Shown one piece after another: positions 16,165 through 25,445 of a stretch of DNA of 32,000 nt. Source of the DNA: Nitratidesulfovibrio vulgaris str. Hildenborough (lineage in GTDB: Bacteria > Desulfobacterota > Desulfovibrionia > Desulfovibrionales > Desulfovibrionaceae); NCBI RefSeq assembly GCF_000195755.1, contig NC_002937.3, forward strand, positions 2,340,001 to 2,372,000. The letters are read 5' to 3'. The notes beneath the pieces are model-generated. The model made no database searches, had not been told where the DNA came from, and worked only from the letters and a program-made list of their open reading frames with translations. Position numbers and translations under genes: made by a program. Every line of letters starts with the position of its first letter. Positions within the stretch are counted from its first letter, which is position 1.

Positions 16165-16240
16165 GGGGATGTAGCTCAGCTGGGAGAGCGCAGCGTTCGC
16201 AATGCTGAAGTCAGGGGTTCAATCCCCCTCATCTCCACCA
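16165..16240 (+). tRNA. tRNA-Ala (anticodon CGC), CCA encoded
   Basis: 76 nt. The fold is acceptor GGGGATG/CATCTCC with the G3:U70 Ala identity pair, D arm GCTC-AGCTGGGA-GAGC, anticodon stem CAGCG/TGCTG with loop TTCGCAA, and T arm AGGGG-TTCAATC-CCCCT. Confidence 0.95.
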
Positions 16241-16695: not shown

Positions 16696-18633
16696 TCAGA
16701 ATTCATACATCAGTGAGAGGTTGCCTCCTACGCCCTCACGTATGCCGGTGTAGCCCTGTGCGCCAAGATCAATAGAAAAGCCCGTGTCTGGCAGAGGCTT
16801 CCATGTGACCCCCACCTCGCCCAAGCCCGTGCCACCCTTCAGGCTTGGCGCGGGAGCGTCAACTCCGGCCACCACGCTGTGCGCCGTACCATCGAACTCG
16901 TATTCCCACGCCGCACCGAAGTACGGCGCGATGCATTCATTCAGCGAGTAGCCGAAACGCGCCCCAAGGCGGGTACGATGCGAATCCACGTCATCAAGGG
17001 TCACTGCGTCACCCAGTATGCTCACGTCCGCCCCGTTTGTGTGCGTCCAGAAATACTTGGCGTACACGTCAATCCAAGCCTGCTCTGTGATGTTCCAGAT
17101 GTACCCCAGGCCCGTGTGCGCACCGTAATAGGCAACACTGATGTCGTACTCGGCCTCGCCCAGCGTCGGGTTCAGGTCATCGCTTCTGTAGTCGGAACGA
17201 AGCCTGCCCGCACGCACCGTCGCTTCGGCATACAGCCCACGCGCTACACCCTCGGTGACTTCCACCCGGCCAAGGAGACCGCCGCCCACAGAACGGCTAT
17301 CGCCCTGCGCCGTGATACTGTCGCCCGCAGCCGTTTCGTTGTGGCTGTCGTAGGAACCGATGCTTGTCTCAAAGAACCCTCCCACAAGCAGGTCTACGCC
17401 GCTTACGGGCAGGCGTTTGGCAAGACCGGTCATGAGGGCAACACTCTGCATGTCCACGTGAGACCCCGTTGCATAGCGAGAGGTCGCGCCGGACGTGGCG
17501 CCGAAGCCCGACCAGCCTGCCTGCGCCATGTTGTCCGCGCCAAGTGAGGCTGCCGCACGCGCATTGCCCATACCCGGCCCGGCAGCAAGGTCCGCGCCTT
17601 GCGTCACAAGGGCGATGCTTGCCGTCTTGCCTTCGGACGGGGATTTGCGGACACTTTCATCCGTCTGTTCGATGCTGATCACGCGGGCCACCAGACTGTT
17701 GAGGGTTGTTTCCAGACCGAAGGTGTAGAGGCTCGAAATGCCCGCCATGCCCGAGACATTGTTGGTCATGCCCGTGTCGGCGTATAGTCGTGAGGTGCTT
17801 TTGATAAGGGTAACGGTGTCATTGACAGCCAGCGGGGTTCCGCTGCCCATGATGCCCACGCCCACGGTGGTGGGGGCGATGGAAGGGCCGGATGAGGGAG
17901 TTTCGATCACAACCCCGTTATCCACGGTGAGCACCGTGTCGCCGGCCCGCACCGTTCCGGGCAGATAGAAGCGGAAATGCTGGAAATTTTCGATGCCCAG
18001 AGTCTGAAGGTTCAGGGTATGGATTTCCAGTGTGTTGTCGGTGCGCGCGTCCCGCGCCGGGTCACCCGAACCGACCTCTGCGCGACCGCCCATAAGGGCT
18101 GTTCTGCTCAGGTCAGGATTGCCGAAGATACGCAGGGTATTACCGGTAGCGATGCCCCCCGTAGAAAACCCACCAAATACGCCGAGGGGACTTAGCGTGC
18201 CGCCGGTTATGATCACCGTATTATTGCTGGCGTTACCGCTGCCGGAATCATCGCTGAAGCCACCGTATAACCCTTCACCAGCATATGTGCCGCTGGTTAT
18301 TGTCACCTGATTGCCGTTGGCGTTGCCGCCATCGCTGTAGCCACCGATGATGGGGCCGCTGATGTTGAGGTCGGTAATATCGGGGTCAAAAATGACGTTC
18401 CCGCCCGTGACACCCGTGGTGTCGGACTTATAGATACCAACGTAGCCGGGATTCGCGAAATTCCAGCTAGGCAGGTTTTCGGTGGTGCCACCAAAGTTGG
18501 CAGCCCACAGAGGCGCGGCAAGTGCGAACAATGCAAGAAAAAGCAGTGTTGCTGCAACGCGCGCGGAATGGCTGTGCGCGCGCCACGGAATTGTGGTAGC
18601 CTGTGGGGGCCGCAGACGCATAGGTAATAACAT
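16696..18633 (-). CDS. Autotransporter outer-membrane protein (Gly-rich passenger plus C-terminal beta-barrel)
   Basis: The start MLLPMRLRPP lies at 18631-18633 with GGAAGGG upstream. There is a long signal peptide ending LFALAAPLWA-AN. The passenger has repeated GG(Y/F)S..GN..N.V.I motifs. The C-terminal ~270 aa alternate in beta-strand pattern and end in the OMP terminus NLSLMYEF. Confidence 0.85.
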   Translation of the reverse strand: MLLPMRLRPPQATTIPWRAHSHSARVAATLLFLALFALAAPLWAANFGGTTENLPSWNFANPGYVGIYKSDTTGVTGGNVIFDPDITDLNISGPIIGGYSDGGNANGNQVTITSGTYAGEGLYGGFSDDSGSGNASNNTVIITGGTLSPLGVFGGFSTGGIATGNTLRIFGNPDLSRTALMGGRAEVGSGDPARDARTDNTLEIHTLNLQTLGIENFQHFRFYLPGTVRAGDTVLTVDNGVVIETPSSGPSIAPTTVGVGIMGSGTPLAVNDTVTLIKSTSRLYADTGMTNNVSGMAGISSLYTFGLETTLNSLVARVISIEQTDESVRKSPSEGKTASIALVTQGADLAAGPGMGNARAAASLGADNMAQAGWSGFGATSGATSRYATGSHVDMQSVALMTGLAKRLPVSGVDLLVGGFFETSIGSYDSHNETAAGDSITAQGDSRSVGGGLLGRVEVTEGVARGLYAEATVRAGRLRSDYRSDDLNPTLGEAEYDISVAYYGAHTGLGYIWNITEQAWIDVYAKYFWTHTNGADVSILGDAVTLDDVDSHRTRLGARFGYSLNECIAPYFGAAWEYEFDGTAHSVVAGVDAPAPSLKGGTGLGEVGVTWKPLPDTGFSIDLGAQGYTGIREGVGGNLSLMYEF

Positions 18634-19064
18634 AAACCCTTCCTGAAGTTGTAACGTGGTGTTTCCCCTGACGTGTTGCGGATGCAAATATGCCCGGTGC
18701 AGCGGGTGCTGACATCGGGCATGGATACGGCCTCATTCAATAGAGGCTATATCTGCAATACAGGTAATAATAACAGTATGTTTTTGTTATGTAAACAGTA
18801 TATACCACCTATCTACAGTGTGTGAGGACATTCGACGCATCACCGAAAAACAACGATGCGGCCTTCGGAATGAGTGGCCAGAGCGCACACATCAGCACCA
18901 TATTGCCGCTCATGCCTTCGCGCCTGCCTATATAGCACGATGTCCCAAAACCATGTCGAAGGGCATGGCCAGAGACAATGAAGCTTCACGGAAGATTCTA
19001 TAATGCCGCAGATAGAGACCATCTCCGGCCGCGAAGCCTGAATTCGCCTTCCACAACGAACGAA

Positions 19065-19129: not shown

Positions 19130-19423
19130 TCATGCCTGTTCAGCGAAGAGCAGCACTTCGTTGTTGTCGTTGAACGACAGTGTGAACACCGTGCCGTACT
19201 TCACGAGAAAGTCCTTTTCGGCAATGAACGGCACGTCCTCGACGTCGACGCGGACATCCTCATCCATATCCTGTTCTTCCATTCCGAGGCCGAGGATGAC
19301 CTTCGAACTGCATCCCGACCCGTGCTTGTATTCGCGCAGGCGCACGCAGGTTCCGTCATCCTCTTCGGCAAGCATCGCACGTAGTTTGTCCAGCATGGCT
19401 GCGGGTACGGTAAGGGTGAACAT
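19130..19423 (-). CDS. Small HesB/IscA-like protein, Cys form (97 aa)
   Basis: ATG 19421-19423 has AAGGAG upstream. The product is MFTLTVPAAMLDKLRAMLAEEDDGTCVRLREYKHGSGCSSKVILGLGMEE... The R-L-R-x-x-x-x-G-x-G-C-S pattern resembles the first-Cys region of A-type carriers, but the C-terminal CGC is absent. Cys38 is encoded at 19310-19312. Confidence 0.75.
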   Translation of the reverse strand: MFTLTVPAAMLDKLRAMLAEEDDGTCVRLREYKHGSGCSSKVILGLGMEEQDMDEDVRVDVEDVPFIAEKDFLVKYGTVFTLSFNDNNEVLLFAEQA

Positions 19424-19647
19424 ATCCTATCTCCTTCTTGTGTTTCCCATGCCAGTCGTCCGGCATGGTGTTGTCTGACGGTTCGTCCGTTCGGATCGTC
19501 CGCGGTGAGGGGCACCCCTGCCTCACCCGTGAGCGTCGTTCGCAAGACGAATCCATGAGCAGCACGGTGCTGCCTTTCGGGTGACTTCTCCGGTGGTCTG
19601 TCGGCGCAATCGGGGGAACACGGCAAAAGTCCCTCCTCGCACCACCC

Positions 19648-19684
19648 GGAAAACGCAAAAGCCCCCTGTCGAGGCGACAGGGGG
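19648..19684 (-). terminator. Rho-independent terminator ending the GRE-activase-selenoprotein unit
   Basis: The minus strand reads CCCCCTGTCG-CCT-CGACAGGGGG followed by CTTTTGCGTTTTCC. It lies 40 nt after the TAG at 19725. Confidence 0.75.
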
Positions 19685-19724
19685 CGGCAATGGCGGTGAA
19701 CGCGGCACTCGCCGTGGGGCTTTG

Positions 19725-20018
19725 CTAGCCTTCCACGGGGCTGAGCACAACCTCTCTGTTCTCGCCGAACGTGAGGCTGTAGGCCGTACCGTATTTCACC
19801 AGAAAATCCTTGTTGGCGGAGAACGGTACGCCGTTCACTTCAATCTGCTCGTCCTCATCCTCGTCAAGTTCGTCCATGCCCAGACCGAGCACGATCTTGG
19901 CATGTCAGCCGCCGCCGACCTTGTACTCGCGCAGTCGCACGCAGGTTCCTTCATCTTCGTCCTCGAGCATGGCGCGCAGCCTGTCGAGCATCTCTTCCGT
20001 TACGGTGACAGTGAACAT
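19725..20018 (-). CDS. HesB/IscA-like selenoprotein candidate (97 aa; UGA-Sec at codon 38)
   Basis: ATG 20016-20018 has GGAGAA upstream and lies 20 nt after the activase stop. The frame reads MFTVTVTEEMLDRLRAMLEDEDEGTCVRLREYKVGGG, then TGA (19905-19907), then HAKIVLGLGMDELDEDEDEQIEVNGVPFSANKDFLVKYGTAYSLTFGENREVVLSPVEG, then TAG. The post-TGA part is collinear with the paralogue at 19130-19423, and the TGA aligns with that paralogue's Cys38. Confidence 0.7.
19875..19904 (-). promoter_or_regulatory. Candidate bacterial SECIS stem-loop immediately 3' of the UGA
   Basis: The mRNA reads UGA-CAUGCC-A-AGAUCG-UGCU-CGGUCU-G-GGCAUG. This is 6 bp, a 1x1 A/G mismatch, then 6 bp (one G-U pair), capped by a G-containing tetraloop that starts 14 nt after the UGA. 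Confidence 0.55.
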
Positions 20019-20038
20019 AGCTTCTCCGTTCCTAGTCG

Positions 20039-20932
20039 TTACACCATGACGGGCACGAGCCCGTGTTTCGCAAACCTGTCCAGAACAGCCGAAAGCTGCT
20101 CGGGAGTGTACTGGGGCATGTCGGGCGCGGGCAGGCCCAGCGCCACGTATTTGTTCCATCCGAAGGCATGGCACGGCATGACCTCCACCTTGTCGCGCCC
20201 GAATTCGCCAAGCAGGGCGGCGAGGGCGGAGAGGTTGGCGTCATCGTCGTTCATGCCGGGAATGAGCGGCATCCTCACATGCACTTCCTTGCCTGACGCC
20301 AGCGCGGCGCGCAGGTTGCGCAGAATCAGCGTATTGTCCTGCCCGGTCAGGCGGCGGTGCGCCTCCGGGTCGGTGTGCTTGCAATCGAAGAGGAAGAGGT
20401 CGGCAAGGGCGAGGGTACGGTCGAAGCGCTCTTCGGGACAGAAACCGCAGGTGTCGACCGTGACATGGATGCCCTCTTCATGCGCCGCCTTGACGAGGTC
20501 GAGAAAGAACTCGCCGCCGGAGGTGGGCTCACCACCGCCGAAGGTCACGCCACCGCCGGAATTCTCGTAGAAGAGCATGTCCTTGAGAACGACATCCATG
20601 ACCTCTTCGACGGTCATGAGGCGACCCGACATCTCACGCGCCTTGCTTGGGCACGAGGCCGTACACAGGCCGCAGTGGGTGCATTTCGCGATGGAACGGA
20701 TGACCTTGCCATCGACGATGCGCGCCGCCCCTTCGGGACAGACCTCCACGCACTTGCCGCAGCCGGTGCAGAGGTTCTCGAAGAACAGCATCTGGGGAAC
20801 GGCACTCTGCGACTCGGGATTGCTGCACCACAGACACCGCAGCGGGCAGCCCTTGAGGAAGACGGTGGTGCGCAGGCCGGGGCCGTCATGCACCGACATA
20901 CGCTGGATATTGTAGATCATTCCCTGTCGCAT
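20039..20932 (-). CDS. Glycyl radical enzyme activating enzyme (radical SAM with two extra ferredoxin-type clusters)
   Basis: 297 aa with GGAG upstream. The radical SAM motif is CPLRCLWCSNPE. Auxiliary cluster motifs are CTGCGKCVEVCP and CTHCGLCTASCP. The SAM-binding GGGVTFGGGEP is present. Confidence 0.93.
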   Translation of the reverse strand: MRQGMIYNIQRMSVHDGPGLRTTVFLKGCPLRCLWCSNPESQSAVPQMLFFENLCTGCGKCVEVCPEGAARIVDGKVIRSIAKCTHCGLCTASCPSKAREMSGRLMTVEEVMDVVLKDMLFYENSGGGVTFGGGEPTSGGEFFLDLVKAAHEEGIHVTVDTCGFCPEERFDRTLALADLFLFDCKHTDPEAHRRLTGQDNTLILRNLRAALASGKEVHVRMPLIPGMNDDDANLSALAALLGEFGRDKVEVMPCHAFGWNKYVALGLPAPDMPQYTPEQLSAVLDRFAKHGLVPVMV

Positions 20933-23497: not shown

Positions 23498-23711
23498 TTC
23501 AATCTCCTGTGTTGTGAACGTCGTTGTTGCCACTACGTTTCATTTCGTCGGGTCACGTTGCGCCATGTGCCGCCCCGTGCATGAGGGCTTCGGCATCCGG
23601 CATCATGTCCATGCCTCCCGGCATGGAGTCCGGTCAGCATCGCGGGATGGGTAGCGGCGTCACGCCTTTCATCGTGTGCGTCCGTGCCCGCCCTCTCTGC
23701 TTGCCCTTTTC

Positions 23712-23727: not shown

Positions 23728-23906
23728 CGGCCCTTTCACAGCCGCCCGACGTTGCCAACACTACGGAATGCCCTTCCCTTCTCGCCTTTTTTCACAATCT
23801 CCGCCGACCATTTTTTATCGATTGAGAAAAAAACTTTCTTTTCACAAAGAAATCTTCTAGGTTCCCTTCCCGACCACACCATGAGCCTTCCGTGCGAGGA
23901 CCCCCC

Positions 23907-25445
23907 ATGATGCCCCTAGACAGCAGCACTTTCGCCGACGTAAGCCGCGCAGCCGTTCTCACGCCGGCCATGCAGACCATATGGGAAAGTATGGGGGTGG
24001 GGGTCGCCGTGGTGGACGGAGAGGGCATATGCCGCTTCATGAACACCATCCAGCGGCGTGTGGACGGTTTCAGCCGCATTTCCGTGGTCGGGCGGCACAT
24101 CACGAGTCTCTATGTACCGCACGAACTCGAATGCATCCCCACCATCGAGTGTCTCCGCAAGGGCGAACCCATCCTGAAGAAGGCGTACTGGTACAAGACC
24201 ACCAACAACTACCTTGCCAGCACAGTCACGGACTTCATCCCCCTCTATGACGCGGGACGTAAGGACGGGGTCATAGCCTTCACCATCTGGACGGGAACGA
24301 CAGCCTTCGCCGAAGGGCGCAAACGCCAGCCCCGCCCGCCGCAGCCCAAAGGGGCGGCCTATGACTTCTATACGTTCGACAGCATCGTGGGACAGGACGC
24401 CAACCTGCGCGAGGTCATCGCCGAAGCGCGTACGGCAGCCGCAACCTCTTCGCCGGTGATGATCTGGGGGGAAAGCGGCACGGGCAAGGAGGTGTTCGCG
24501 CAAGCGATCCACTCCGAGAGCGACCGCAGACAGCGACCGTTCATCCCCGTGAACTGCGCCGCCATTCCCGAGAACCTGCTCGAAGGCATCCTCTTCGGCA
24601 CGGTCAAGGGCGCGTACACGGACGCCGCCGACAAGCCCGGGCTCTTCGAAGAGGCCGATGGCGGCACCCTGCTCTTCGACGAGCTGAACTCCATGCCGCT
24701 GGGTTTGCAGGCCAAGCTGCTGCGCGTATTGCAGGAGAAACGCGTGCGCCGCCTCGGTTCGCATACGGAAGTCCCGGTAGACGTGCGCATCATGAGCATC
24801 CTCAACGAAGAACCGTTGCAGGCCGTGGAACATGGCGTCCTGCGGCGCGACCTCTTCTACCGTCTCGCCGTGGTGGGCATCTCCGTGCCGCCCCTGCGCG
24901 AACGCAGGAACGACATCCCGCTTCTCGCCCGCATGTTCATCGACCGTTCAGAATTGGCGACGCGCCCCGGTGGGCCGGGGACAGTCGGCGTCAACGACGA
25001 TGTACTGCACATGTTCATGCACTACGACTGGCCGGGCAACATCCGCGAACTCCTGCATGTCGTGGAGGGCAGCCTCGCGCTTCTGGGTGATGGCCCGGAG
25101 ATATGCCCCGCATGTCTGCCGCGGCACTTCCGGGAGGCATGCCATGCGACGGGGAGCACTCCCGCAACGGTTTCGGACATCGTGACGCAGGCCCCCACCC
25201 TCCCCGCCCCCGCGGCCGCTGCCGGCGAGACCGGCGATGCGGGCCTCTACTACGACTACCGGAACATCCGCAAAAGCCACGTCGTCCCGCTCAAGGGATG
25301 CCTGCAGAAATACGAGACCCAGTGCATCTCCAACGTGTTGCGGGTCACGGGGGGGAATGTGGCGAAGGCCGCCCGCATCATGCAGGTCACTGGGGCGGGA
25401 CTGCGTTACAAGATGAAGGCCCTCGACATCTCGGACGAGGATTGA
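23907..25445 (+). CDS. Sigma-54-dependent enhancer-binding protein (PAS sensor, AAA+, Fis-type HTH; no receiver domain)
   Basis: ATG 23907 has GAGGA 6 nt upstream. The N-terminal PAS-like module is MGVGVAVVDGEGICRFMN... The AAA+ module has Walker A GESGTGKE and a GAFTGA-position loop reading GAYTDA, plus GGTLLFDEL, KLLRVLQEKRVRRLG and WPGNIRELLHVVE. The C-terminal HTH is ISNVLRVTGGNVAKAARIMQVTGAGLRYKM. Confidence 0.92.
   Translation: MMPLDSSTFADVSRAAVLTPAMQTIWESMGVGVAVVDGEGICRFMNTIQRRVDGFSRISVVGRHITSLYVPHELECIPTIECLRKGEPILKKAYWYKTTNNYLASTVTDFIPLYDAGRKDGVIAFTIWTGTTAFAEGRKRQPRPPQPKGAAYDFYTFDSIVGQDANLREVIAEARTAAATSSPVMIWGESGTGKEVFAQAIHSESDRRQRPFIPVNCAAIPENLLEGILFGTVKGAYTDAADKPGLFEEADGGTLLFDELNSMPLGLQAKLLRVLQEKRVRRLGSHTEVPVDVRIMSILNEEPLQAVEHGVLRRDLFYRLAVVGISVPPLRERRNDIPLLARMFIDRSELATRPGGPGTVGVNDDVLHMFMHYDWPGNIRELLHVVEGSLALLGDGPEICPACLPRHFREACHATGSTPATVSDIVTQAPTLPAPAAAAGETGDAGLYYDYRNIRKSHVVPLKGCLQKYETQCISNVLRVTGGNVAKAARIMQVTGAGLRYKMKALDISDED

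Follow-up and report, generated by a model that had tools for sequence, protein, structure and literature searches.

Organization of the presumed Sec gene and its tandem paralogue

We analysed a 32,000-nucleotide (nt) stretch of the genome of Nitratidesulfovibrio vulgaris Hildenborough (hereafter D. vulgaris; contig NC_002937.3, positions 2,340,001 to 2,372,000, referred to throughout as the window). It contains a short minus-strand reading frame that is interrupted by an in-frame TGA at codon 38 and that very probably constitutes a single selenoprotein gene. This frame, denoted the Sec gene (Sec, selenocysteine), follows the gene for the activating enzyme (activase) of a glycyl radical enzyme (GRE) and is itself followed by a paralogue with a cysteine codon at the corresponding position, denoted the Cys paralogue. 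The pair comprises the following features, given in window coordinates:

19725-20018, minus strand: Sec gene, 97 codons including the presumed UGA-Sec codon 38; from its translation and its match to the protein family NF033940
19905-19907, minus strand: UGA codon 38, predicted to be read as Sec; aligned with Cys38 of the paralogue and with the GGGC ligand Cys of HI1723/IscA
20024-20027, minus strand: ribosome-binding site (RBS) GGAG of the Sec gene, 5 nt upstream of its ATG, read from the sequence
19130-19423, minus strand: Cys paralogue, 97 amino acids (aa), with TGC at codon 38 (19312-19310) and the RBS AGGAG at 19431-19435
19651-19685, minus strand: terminator-like hairpin and T-run 3' of the Sec gene, found by a scan; stem 19685-19661, 11 bp with 9 G-C pairs, TTTTGCGTTT

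The reading frame of the Sec gene runs on the minus strand from ATG (20018-20016) through the TGA at codon 38 (19907-19905) to TAG (19727-19725), and its start codon lies 20 nt past the TAA stop codon of the activase gene (20041-20039). All Sec-gene orthologues share the N-terminus MF(T/S) at this ATG; the longer open reading frame listed for the window, 19905..20174, is merely the same frame staying open upstream of the true start. A preliminary description made from the letters of the window alone had given the positions of the ATG, the TGA and the TAG, the length of 97 codons, the listed frame and the extent of the paralogue (19130..19423), all of them correctly. It had also estimated by eye that the two products align without gaps at about 60% identity. 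BLASTP gave 59 identities over 92 positions (64%; E = 6e-45) in a gapless alignment that covers both sides of the TGA and places Cys38 opposite it, a similarity far above chance.

Three products of the locus are identical to D. vulgaris Hildenborough entries in GenBank: the Cys paralogue (AAS96740.1, named 'ErpA-related iron-sulfur cluster insertion protein' by NCBI), the GRE (AAS96745.1) and the activase (AAS96744.1). The locus is also present in strain DP4 (CP000527.1) and in other assemblies. The Sec gene is represented in GenBank and UniProt solely by a 37-aa 'hypothetical protein' (AAS96743.1, Q729S9), and gene callers break it up into products of 37 aa and 50-55 aa. When 1.84 billion representatives were searched with a profile, many 37-aa N-terminal and ∼50-aa C-terminal pieces likewise appeared. 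Such paired fragments are the signature of systematically split Sec forms, an expected artefact of gene callers that use the standard code. The full-length Sec form (with X at residue 38) was not found in the NCBI protein collection; nor did a control search return the published HesB-like selenoprotein of D. vulgaris, so that the collection is evidently devoid of U-containing records and the negative result carries no information.

Conservation of the in-frame TGA

Conservation was scanned with one genome per species, which returned 27 loci. TGA was found at exactly codon 38 of the first gene copy, as the sole in-frame stop, in 24 of these 27 species-level loci, and in all 24 the 59 codons past it are fully conserved. 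The TGA-bearing genomes are Desulfovibrionaceae, including D. piger, D. desulfuricans, Desulfobaculum, Halodesulfovibrio and Mailhella. Two more metagenome contigs carry TGA at codon 38 as the single stop, so that Sec-form loci altogether number 27 (26 orthologues and the window). Codon 38 is TGC or TGT in the tandem paralogue and in 16 further Cys forms. The preliminary description had asked which residue its homologues carry at this position: it is encoded by TGA or is Cys, with conservation continuing downstream. The database proteins of these two metagenome contigs (P0007 at locus L032 and P0015 at L034) show Trp at residue 38, and the DNA has TGA in both cases; the Trp comes from the TGA=Trp code of some annotation pipelines, which hides the selenoprotein.

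We then compared selection on the two sides of the TGA from the proportions of nonsynonymous (pN) and synonymous (pS) differences. Among Sec forms, pN/pS averaged 0.25 upstream of the TGA (codons 1-37) and 0.29 downstream (codons 49-93), with pS close to saturation on both sides (0.67 and 0.79). Selection at the protein level thus acts equally on the codons beyond the TGA and on those that precede it. The claim of a genuine Sec codon in the preliminary description is thus borne out by the recurrence of the TGA, by these ratios and by the covarying hairpin described below.

In one 677-nt metagenome scaffold (L033, positions 369-662) the TGA is replaced by TTA (Leu), and the downstream hairpin is intact. 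The TTA probably stems from an error in sequencing or assembly rather than from natural variation to Leu, because a second G-to-T change (MDEDE to MYEDE) lies nearby. Two bins assigned outside the Desulfovibrionaceae, a Bulleidia sp. (L027) and an Odoribacter (L028), carry two Cys copies and no Sec copy within the same gene cluster, including a GRE that is 82% identical; these loci reflect either horizontal transfer into hosts that do not use Sec or mis-binning. Among remote relatives (23-32% identity), P0126 and P0138 have W at or beside the position that aligns with Cys38 and may be further hidden Sec forms; other remote family members have no Cys at the aligned position 38.

A neighbour-joining tree of Sec and Cys forms, weakly resolved, did not separate a Sec clade from a Cys clade. 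In several lineages (L026, L010/L013 and L006) copies of both forms from one genome cluster together, which hints at repeated duplication with a change from Sec to Cys, or at gene conversion within the tandem. The tree cannot choose between the two because the proteins are too short.

The host reads its genes with code 11 and possesses SelA, SelB and SelD, three of the components that the preliminary description had wished to see confirmed; none of selA, selB and selD lies inside the window. The objection that the machinery for Sec might be missing is void, because D. vulgaris is listed as a Sec-decoding organism with eight selenoproteins, for which SelA and SelB sequences are given (Zhang et al. 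2006, PMC1794560).

A predicted SECIS hairpin downstream of the UGA

RNAalifold was run on 22 distinct Sec-form sequences and yielded a consensus hairpin that is a strong candidate for the selenocysteine insertion sequence (SECIS):

19875-19893, minus strand: predicted SECIS hairpin CGUGCUC-GGUCU-GGGCAUG, 7 bp with a 5-nt loop (19882-19886); RNAalifold consensus

Eleven nt separate the UGA from the hairpin, whose loop spans nt 22-26 (the U of the UGA being nt 1). Across the Sec forms, 99.4% of the cells of the consensus are paired, and shifting the partners abolishes pairing. Two of the pairs show compensatory changes: in the D. desulfuricans group a G-C pair is replaced by A-U, and in two other lineages a C-G pair is replaced by A-U and by U-A. 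These values were reached by 0 of 500 column shuffles. In the same columns of 16 Cys forms only 64% of the cells are paired, and none of these sequences is fully paired. The mean hairpin energy is −7.1 kcal/mol for the Sec forms versus +1.5 kcal/mol for the Cys forms.

Codon usage gave a consistent picture. In the Sec forms, the codons of V43-L44-G45-L46-G47 have entropies of 0.43, 0, 0.25, 0 and 0.41 bits; at codons 43-47 of the Cys paralogues the entropy is 0.97-1.75 bits, and at the other Leu and Gly codons of the Sec genes 1.2-1.75 bits. The pS of the Sec forms falls to 0.28 in codons 39-48, compared with 0.67-0.79 elsewhere. Synonymous sites are frozen in codons 43-47 alone, and in the Sec forms alone.

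For comparison we used the SECIS of E. coli fdhF, the sequence of which was checked and is present in 5,419 of 5,426 E. coli genomes. The candidate shares with it the 11-nt spacer and GGUCU at nt 22-26, so that G23 and U24, the contacts of SelB in the fdhF element, are in register. It differs from the fdhF element in the absence of the bulged U17, in its 5-nt loop and 7-bp stem, and in having no conserved equivalent of the lower fdhF stem.

Two results weigh against the assignment. Rfam returned no SECIS family, either for the entire window at gathering thresholds or at E ≤ 10 over 19820-19940, where only chance matches appeared. Furthermore, when the 38 nt past the TGA are folded from the window sequence alone, the minimum-energy structure is a 12-bp hairpin that abuts the UGA (−18.2 kcal/mol, z = −4). 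We rejected this 12-bp hairpin as the SECIS, since its pairing across orthologues (81.8%) equals the shuffle mean and shows no covariation. Folding of the 66 nt past the TGA gave an unconvincing minimum-energy structure (z = −1.8). In D. vulgaris the 12-bp hairpin (19875-19904, minus strand) and the conserved SECIS hairpin are mutually exclusive.

Protein family and fold

Both products belong to the NCBIfam family NF033940 (ErpA-related): against a cut-off of 65, the Sec form (with C in place of U) scores 136.6 bits and the Cys form 137.4 bits. The number of this model is close to those of NCBI selenoprotein models, which we take to be a hint, not evidence, of a Sec annotation in RefSeq. In the family profile alignment, the GGG-C/U loop coincides with the GGGC ligand Cys of HI1723, a protein of the IscA/ErpA type. 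The motif of the Sec forms is GGGUH[A/S/C]K (UHAK in the window, where Cys is absent beyond residue 38); the His39 that follows Sec is present in all Sec forms, and the Cys forms have H, R or S there.

An AlphaFold2 model was built for the Cys paralogue. It reached a predicted local distance difference test score (pLDDT) of 90 and a predicted template modelling score (pTM) of 0.81, and its confidence is lowest at residues 31-40, the loop that carries residue 38. Foldseek matched the model with a probability of 1.0 to E. coli IscA (1s98, TM score 0.73), to SufA (2d2a, TM score 0.73) and to HI1723. The predicted fold is accordingly that of an A-type iron-sulfur (Fe-S) carrier, with Sec predicted at the position of the first ligand Cys. 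The preliminary description had called the proteins HesB/IscA-like and noted that they lack the C-terminal C-G-C, and the family match, the modelled fold and the absence of CxC from every family member agree with it.

It had also pointed to a family of HesB-like selenoproteins, and this connection did not hold. The NF038090 model for HesB-like selenoproteins gave 23.5 bits (Sec form) and 19.2 bits (Cys form), far from its cut-off of 85; TIGR01911 matched neither protein at E ≤ 0.01; and the UxGP motif and the Cys-rich tail of that family are absent. Many very long proteins (500-5000 aa) match the NF033940 family profile repeatedly over positions 33-70, which may reflect the low complexity of the acidic DEDEDE segment and not homology.

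The glycyl radical enzyme operon

The genes upstream of the Sec gene, together with a divergent regulator, are as follows:

20039-20932, minus strand: GRE activating enzyme; TIGR02494 (380.8 bits), PF04055 and Fer4; AAS96744.1
21044-23497, minus strand: glycyl radical enzyme (DVU2272 orthologue), 817 aa as deposited; PF02901 and PF01228; AAS96745.1
23713-23727, minus strand: sigma-54-type -24/-12 motif TGGCAT-N5-GTGC, 5' of the GRE gene; a pattern match with 2 mismatches, alone not significant
23892-25445, plus strand: divergent sigma-54 enhancer-binding protein (EBP); PF00158 (203 bits) and HTH_8; syntenic in nearly all loci

The activase combines a radical S-adenosylmethionine domain with two ferredoxin-type 4Fe-4S motifs. 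The order EBP, GRE, activase, Sec form and, optionally, Cys form is maintained wherever the contig reaches far enough upstream, and the GRE orthologues, 77-88% identical, occupy the same position wherever the contig covers it (Desulfovibrio, Mailhella, Halodesulfovibrio and Desulfobaculum). A sigma-54 promoter and control by DVU2275, with a binding site, have been predicted for the DVU2272-DVU2269 operon (Kazakov et al. 2015, PMC4641369). Both this prediction and the conserved gene order agree with the earlier placement of the Sec form 20 nt behind a GRE activase at the end of a sigma-54-controlled operon. Beyond the 2015 operon prediction, literature searches on DVU2269-2272 and on the NF033940 (ErpA-related) family yielded nothing about the small genes.

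A Cys form accompanies the Sec form in the window and in 13 other loci; each of these 14 pairs has the Sec form in front. The preliminary description had placed the Cys form behind a terminator and an RBS of its own. Both were found in D. vulgaris; the terminator proved to be lineage-specific, as among the 14 pairs it occurs in the Sec/Cys spacer of D. vulgaris and Desulfobaculum only, the remaining spacers measuring 47-131 nt without a terminator.

The reading frame of the GRE extends upstream of its deposited start to a GTG at 23533, and the enzyme falls below every NCBIfam equivalog cut-off. Because of a TauE neighbour, it was at first suspected to be the isethionate sulfite-lyase IseG/IslA. 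This identity was rejected: the match to the characterised IseG of D. vulgaris (5ymr) reached only E = 5e-100, and all equivalog cut-offs were missed. The Cys loop reads YGCVSTG and not GCVE as in the eliminases, the Glu being absent. Frequent neighbours of the locus are TauE-family, DUF4125 and amino-acid-permease genes, which suggests a sulfonate or an amino acid as the substrate of the GRE.

Relation to known selenoproteins

Genome surveys revealed selenoproteins of the HesB/IscA type some twenty years ago, yet no function has been assigned to them. The HesB-like selenoprotein family (TIGR01911/NF038090; Kryukov & Gladyshev; PMC1794560) resembles the protein described here in its size of ∼100 aa, in its membership in the HesB/IscA superfamily and in having Sec in place of the first ligand Cys after G-G. 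Both families occur in Desulfovibrio and other anaerobes, both have Cys homologues, and neither has an assigned function. The NF033940 Sec form differs from the HesB-like selenoproteins in having GGGUH[A/S/C]K instead of UxGP, in lacking a C-terminal tail rich in Cys, Gly and Ser, and in its strict linkage to a GRE activase. It represents a second selenoprotein family in a superfamily that already holds one.

The HesB-like selenoprotein reported for D. vulgaris in 2006 (MFELTDNARK...GGUSGPRL..., ending in a Cys-rich tail) is encoded by another gene and is the sole HesB-like entry for this organism (PMC1794560); the Sec gene is not in that selenoproteome. An inventory of 119 prokaryotic selenoprotein families from May 2026 lists HesB-like proteins only as TIGR01911 with the motif UxGP and has no ErpA-related or NF033940 entry. 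Because the Sec gene is missing from the 2006 list and from the 2026 inventory and is split in the databases, the selenoproteome of D. vulgaris, a model sulfate reducer, is probably one short.

Pairs of Sec and Cys isoforms are known from Methanococcus (the hydrogenases Fru/Frc and Vhu/Vhc) and from the selenium-dependent switching of D. vulgaris hydrogenases (see, for part of this, PMC11097638). As in those systems, a Sec and a Cys form of one protein are encoded in one genome. Unlike in those systems, the two genes are here adjacent in tandem, usually within one operon and with the Sec form first, a pairing seen at the level of gene arrangement.

That a HesB-type protein from Desulfovibrio should contain Sec is by itself unsurprising. 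What is new is the strict linkage to a GRE activase together with the conserved tandem of a Sec form followed by a Cys form, which provides a testable handle on function. This genetic handle is a clean one: the gene occurs only beside one orthologous pair of GRE and activase, with the Sec form first and the Cys twin often next.

Proposed function and alternatives

As a whole explanation, we consider it very likely that 19725-20018 on the minus strand is one gene, encoding a 97-residue selenoprotein of the NF033940 family of D. vulgaris. SelB- and SECIS-dependent insertion of Sec at codon 38 is almost certainly how its UGA is read, judging from the comparative sequence data. In the proposed mechanism, the Sec gene would be the last or second-last gene of a sigma-54/EBP operon comprising GRE, activase, Sec form and Cys form. 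Translation would start from the ATG at 20018; at the UGA, the 19-nt hairpin (19875-19893) would recruit SelB and Sec-tRNA(Sec), Sec would be inserted at codon 38 and the ribosome would proceed to the TAG at 19725. The Sec residue would then reside on the flexible loop that bears the first cluster-ligand Cys of IscA, SufA and ErpA, and the ligand sphere may be completed by dimerising or by docking on a client. The Cys twin would serve as a selenium-independent backup or as a partner, most simply as the former.

The predicted fold, the position of Sec and the invariant adjacency of the genes (the Sec form adjoins the activase in every genome examined) lead us to propose, tentatively, a dedicated [4Fe-4S] delivery or repair factor for the three-cluster GRE activase. 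With IscA, SufA and ErpA (PF01521) the protein has in common the predicted fold, the GGG-C/U loop at the first cluster ligand and the ErpA-related name given by NCBI. It differs from them in being specific to one operon rather than housekeeping, and several further features speak against a role as carrier. Bona fide A-type carriers require a C-terminal CxC, which is present in no member of the family, the first ligand (U/C38) alone being retained. The Pfam gathering score of PF01521 is missed by both proteins (22.8 and 19.5 bits versus 26.3). Moreover, residue 38 is the sole invariant Cys/Sec of the family, since C26 is replaced by Tyr in one Sec form and by Arg in one Cys form. The C26-x11-[U/C]38 pair that had been singled out in the preliminary description is weakened by these replacements. 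In the model, C26 lies at the start of the strand formed by residues 25-34, at the opposite end of the beta-hairpin from the tip that carries residue 38; because of this distance, an intramolecular pair of C26 and U38 is unlikely.

A somewhat unlikely but serious alternative is that the protein is a genuine selenoprotein and not an Fe-S carrier, with Sec/Cys38 acting as a redox or chalcogen-relay residue, or with the protein serving as an adaptor only. It could then be a dedicated reductant, a scavenger of a reactive GRE product, a carrier of sulfur or selenium, or a client-binding adaptor similar to NfuA, in which a degenerate A-type domain devoid of Cys binds clients. The missing CxC ligands, which leave a single invariant Cys/Sec, fit such a role, as does the finding that most bacterial selenoproteins are redox proteins (2026 review). 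The chemistry of the system can be read in the same direction, as the TauE-family and amino-acid-permease neighbours suggest sulfonate or amino-acid metabolism and the GRE has GCVS in its Cys loop in place of the GCVE of eliminases. On the other hand, Sec is found exactly at the cluster-ligand Cys of an IscA fold, the gene is strictly adjacent to that of a three-cluster activase, and the protein has neither a motif of the CxxC/CxxU type nor a second conserved thiol that could resolve a selenenylsulfide.

That the TGA is an ordinary stop codon, giving a 37-aa peptide, with the rest of the locus a pseudogene or split gene that has decayed or is translated separately, is highly improbable. The 37-aa GenBank/UniProt entry and the splitting of the locus by gene callers would suit this explanation, but such fragments are just what callers using the standard code are expected to produce. 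The supposed split would have been retained in 27 loci from several genera, all of them free of further stops and frameshifts and showing a downstream pN/pS of 0.29, and a covarying, conserved hairpin is found at the position of a SECIS. Equally improbable is a readthrough of the UGA by other means, such as near-cognate insertion of Trp or Cys or another form of recoding: the Trp that some pipelines report (P0007 and P0015) is TGA in the DNA and stems from the genetic code of the caller, code 11 applies in the host, which possesses the machinery for Sec, the fdhF-type spacing and GGUC loop of the hairpin are specific for SelB, and homologues without TGA have Cys at residue 38.

The most far-reaching possibility, a GRE system dependent on a dedicated selenoprotein whose Sec directly ligates an Fe-S cluster or hands one over to the activase, or joins in GRE turnover, appears doubtful at present. 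If true, it would constitute the first selenoprotein in glycyl-radical enzymology and a selenolate-ligated Fe-S carrier, and it would offer the first functional handle on the HesB/IscA-type selenoproteins.

Other features of the window

Just downstream of the Cys paralogue, on the minus strand, lies a gene for a 663-aa protein containing an autotransporter beta-barrel domain (16696-18687). It is a strain-variable insertion, present in the window and at two other loci (L002 and L004); strain DP4 (L003) and L001 lack it and have a gene for 74 aa in its place. The only RNA gene detected in the window is a tRNA-Ala (CGC) on the plus strand, at 16165-16240.

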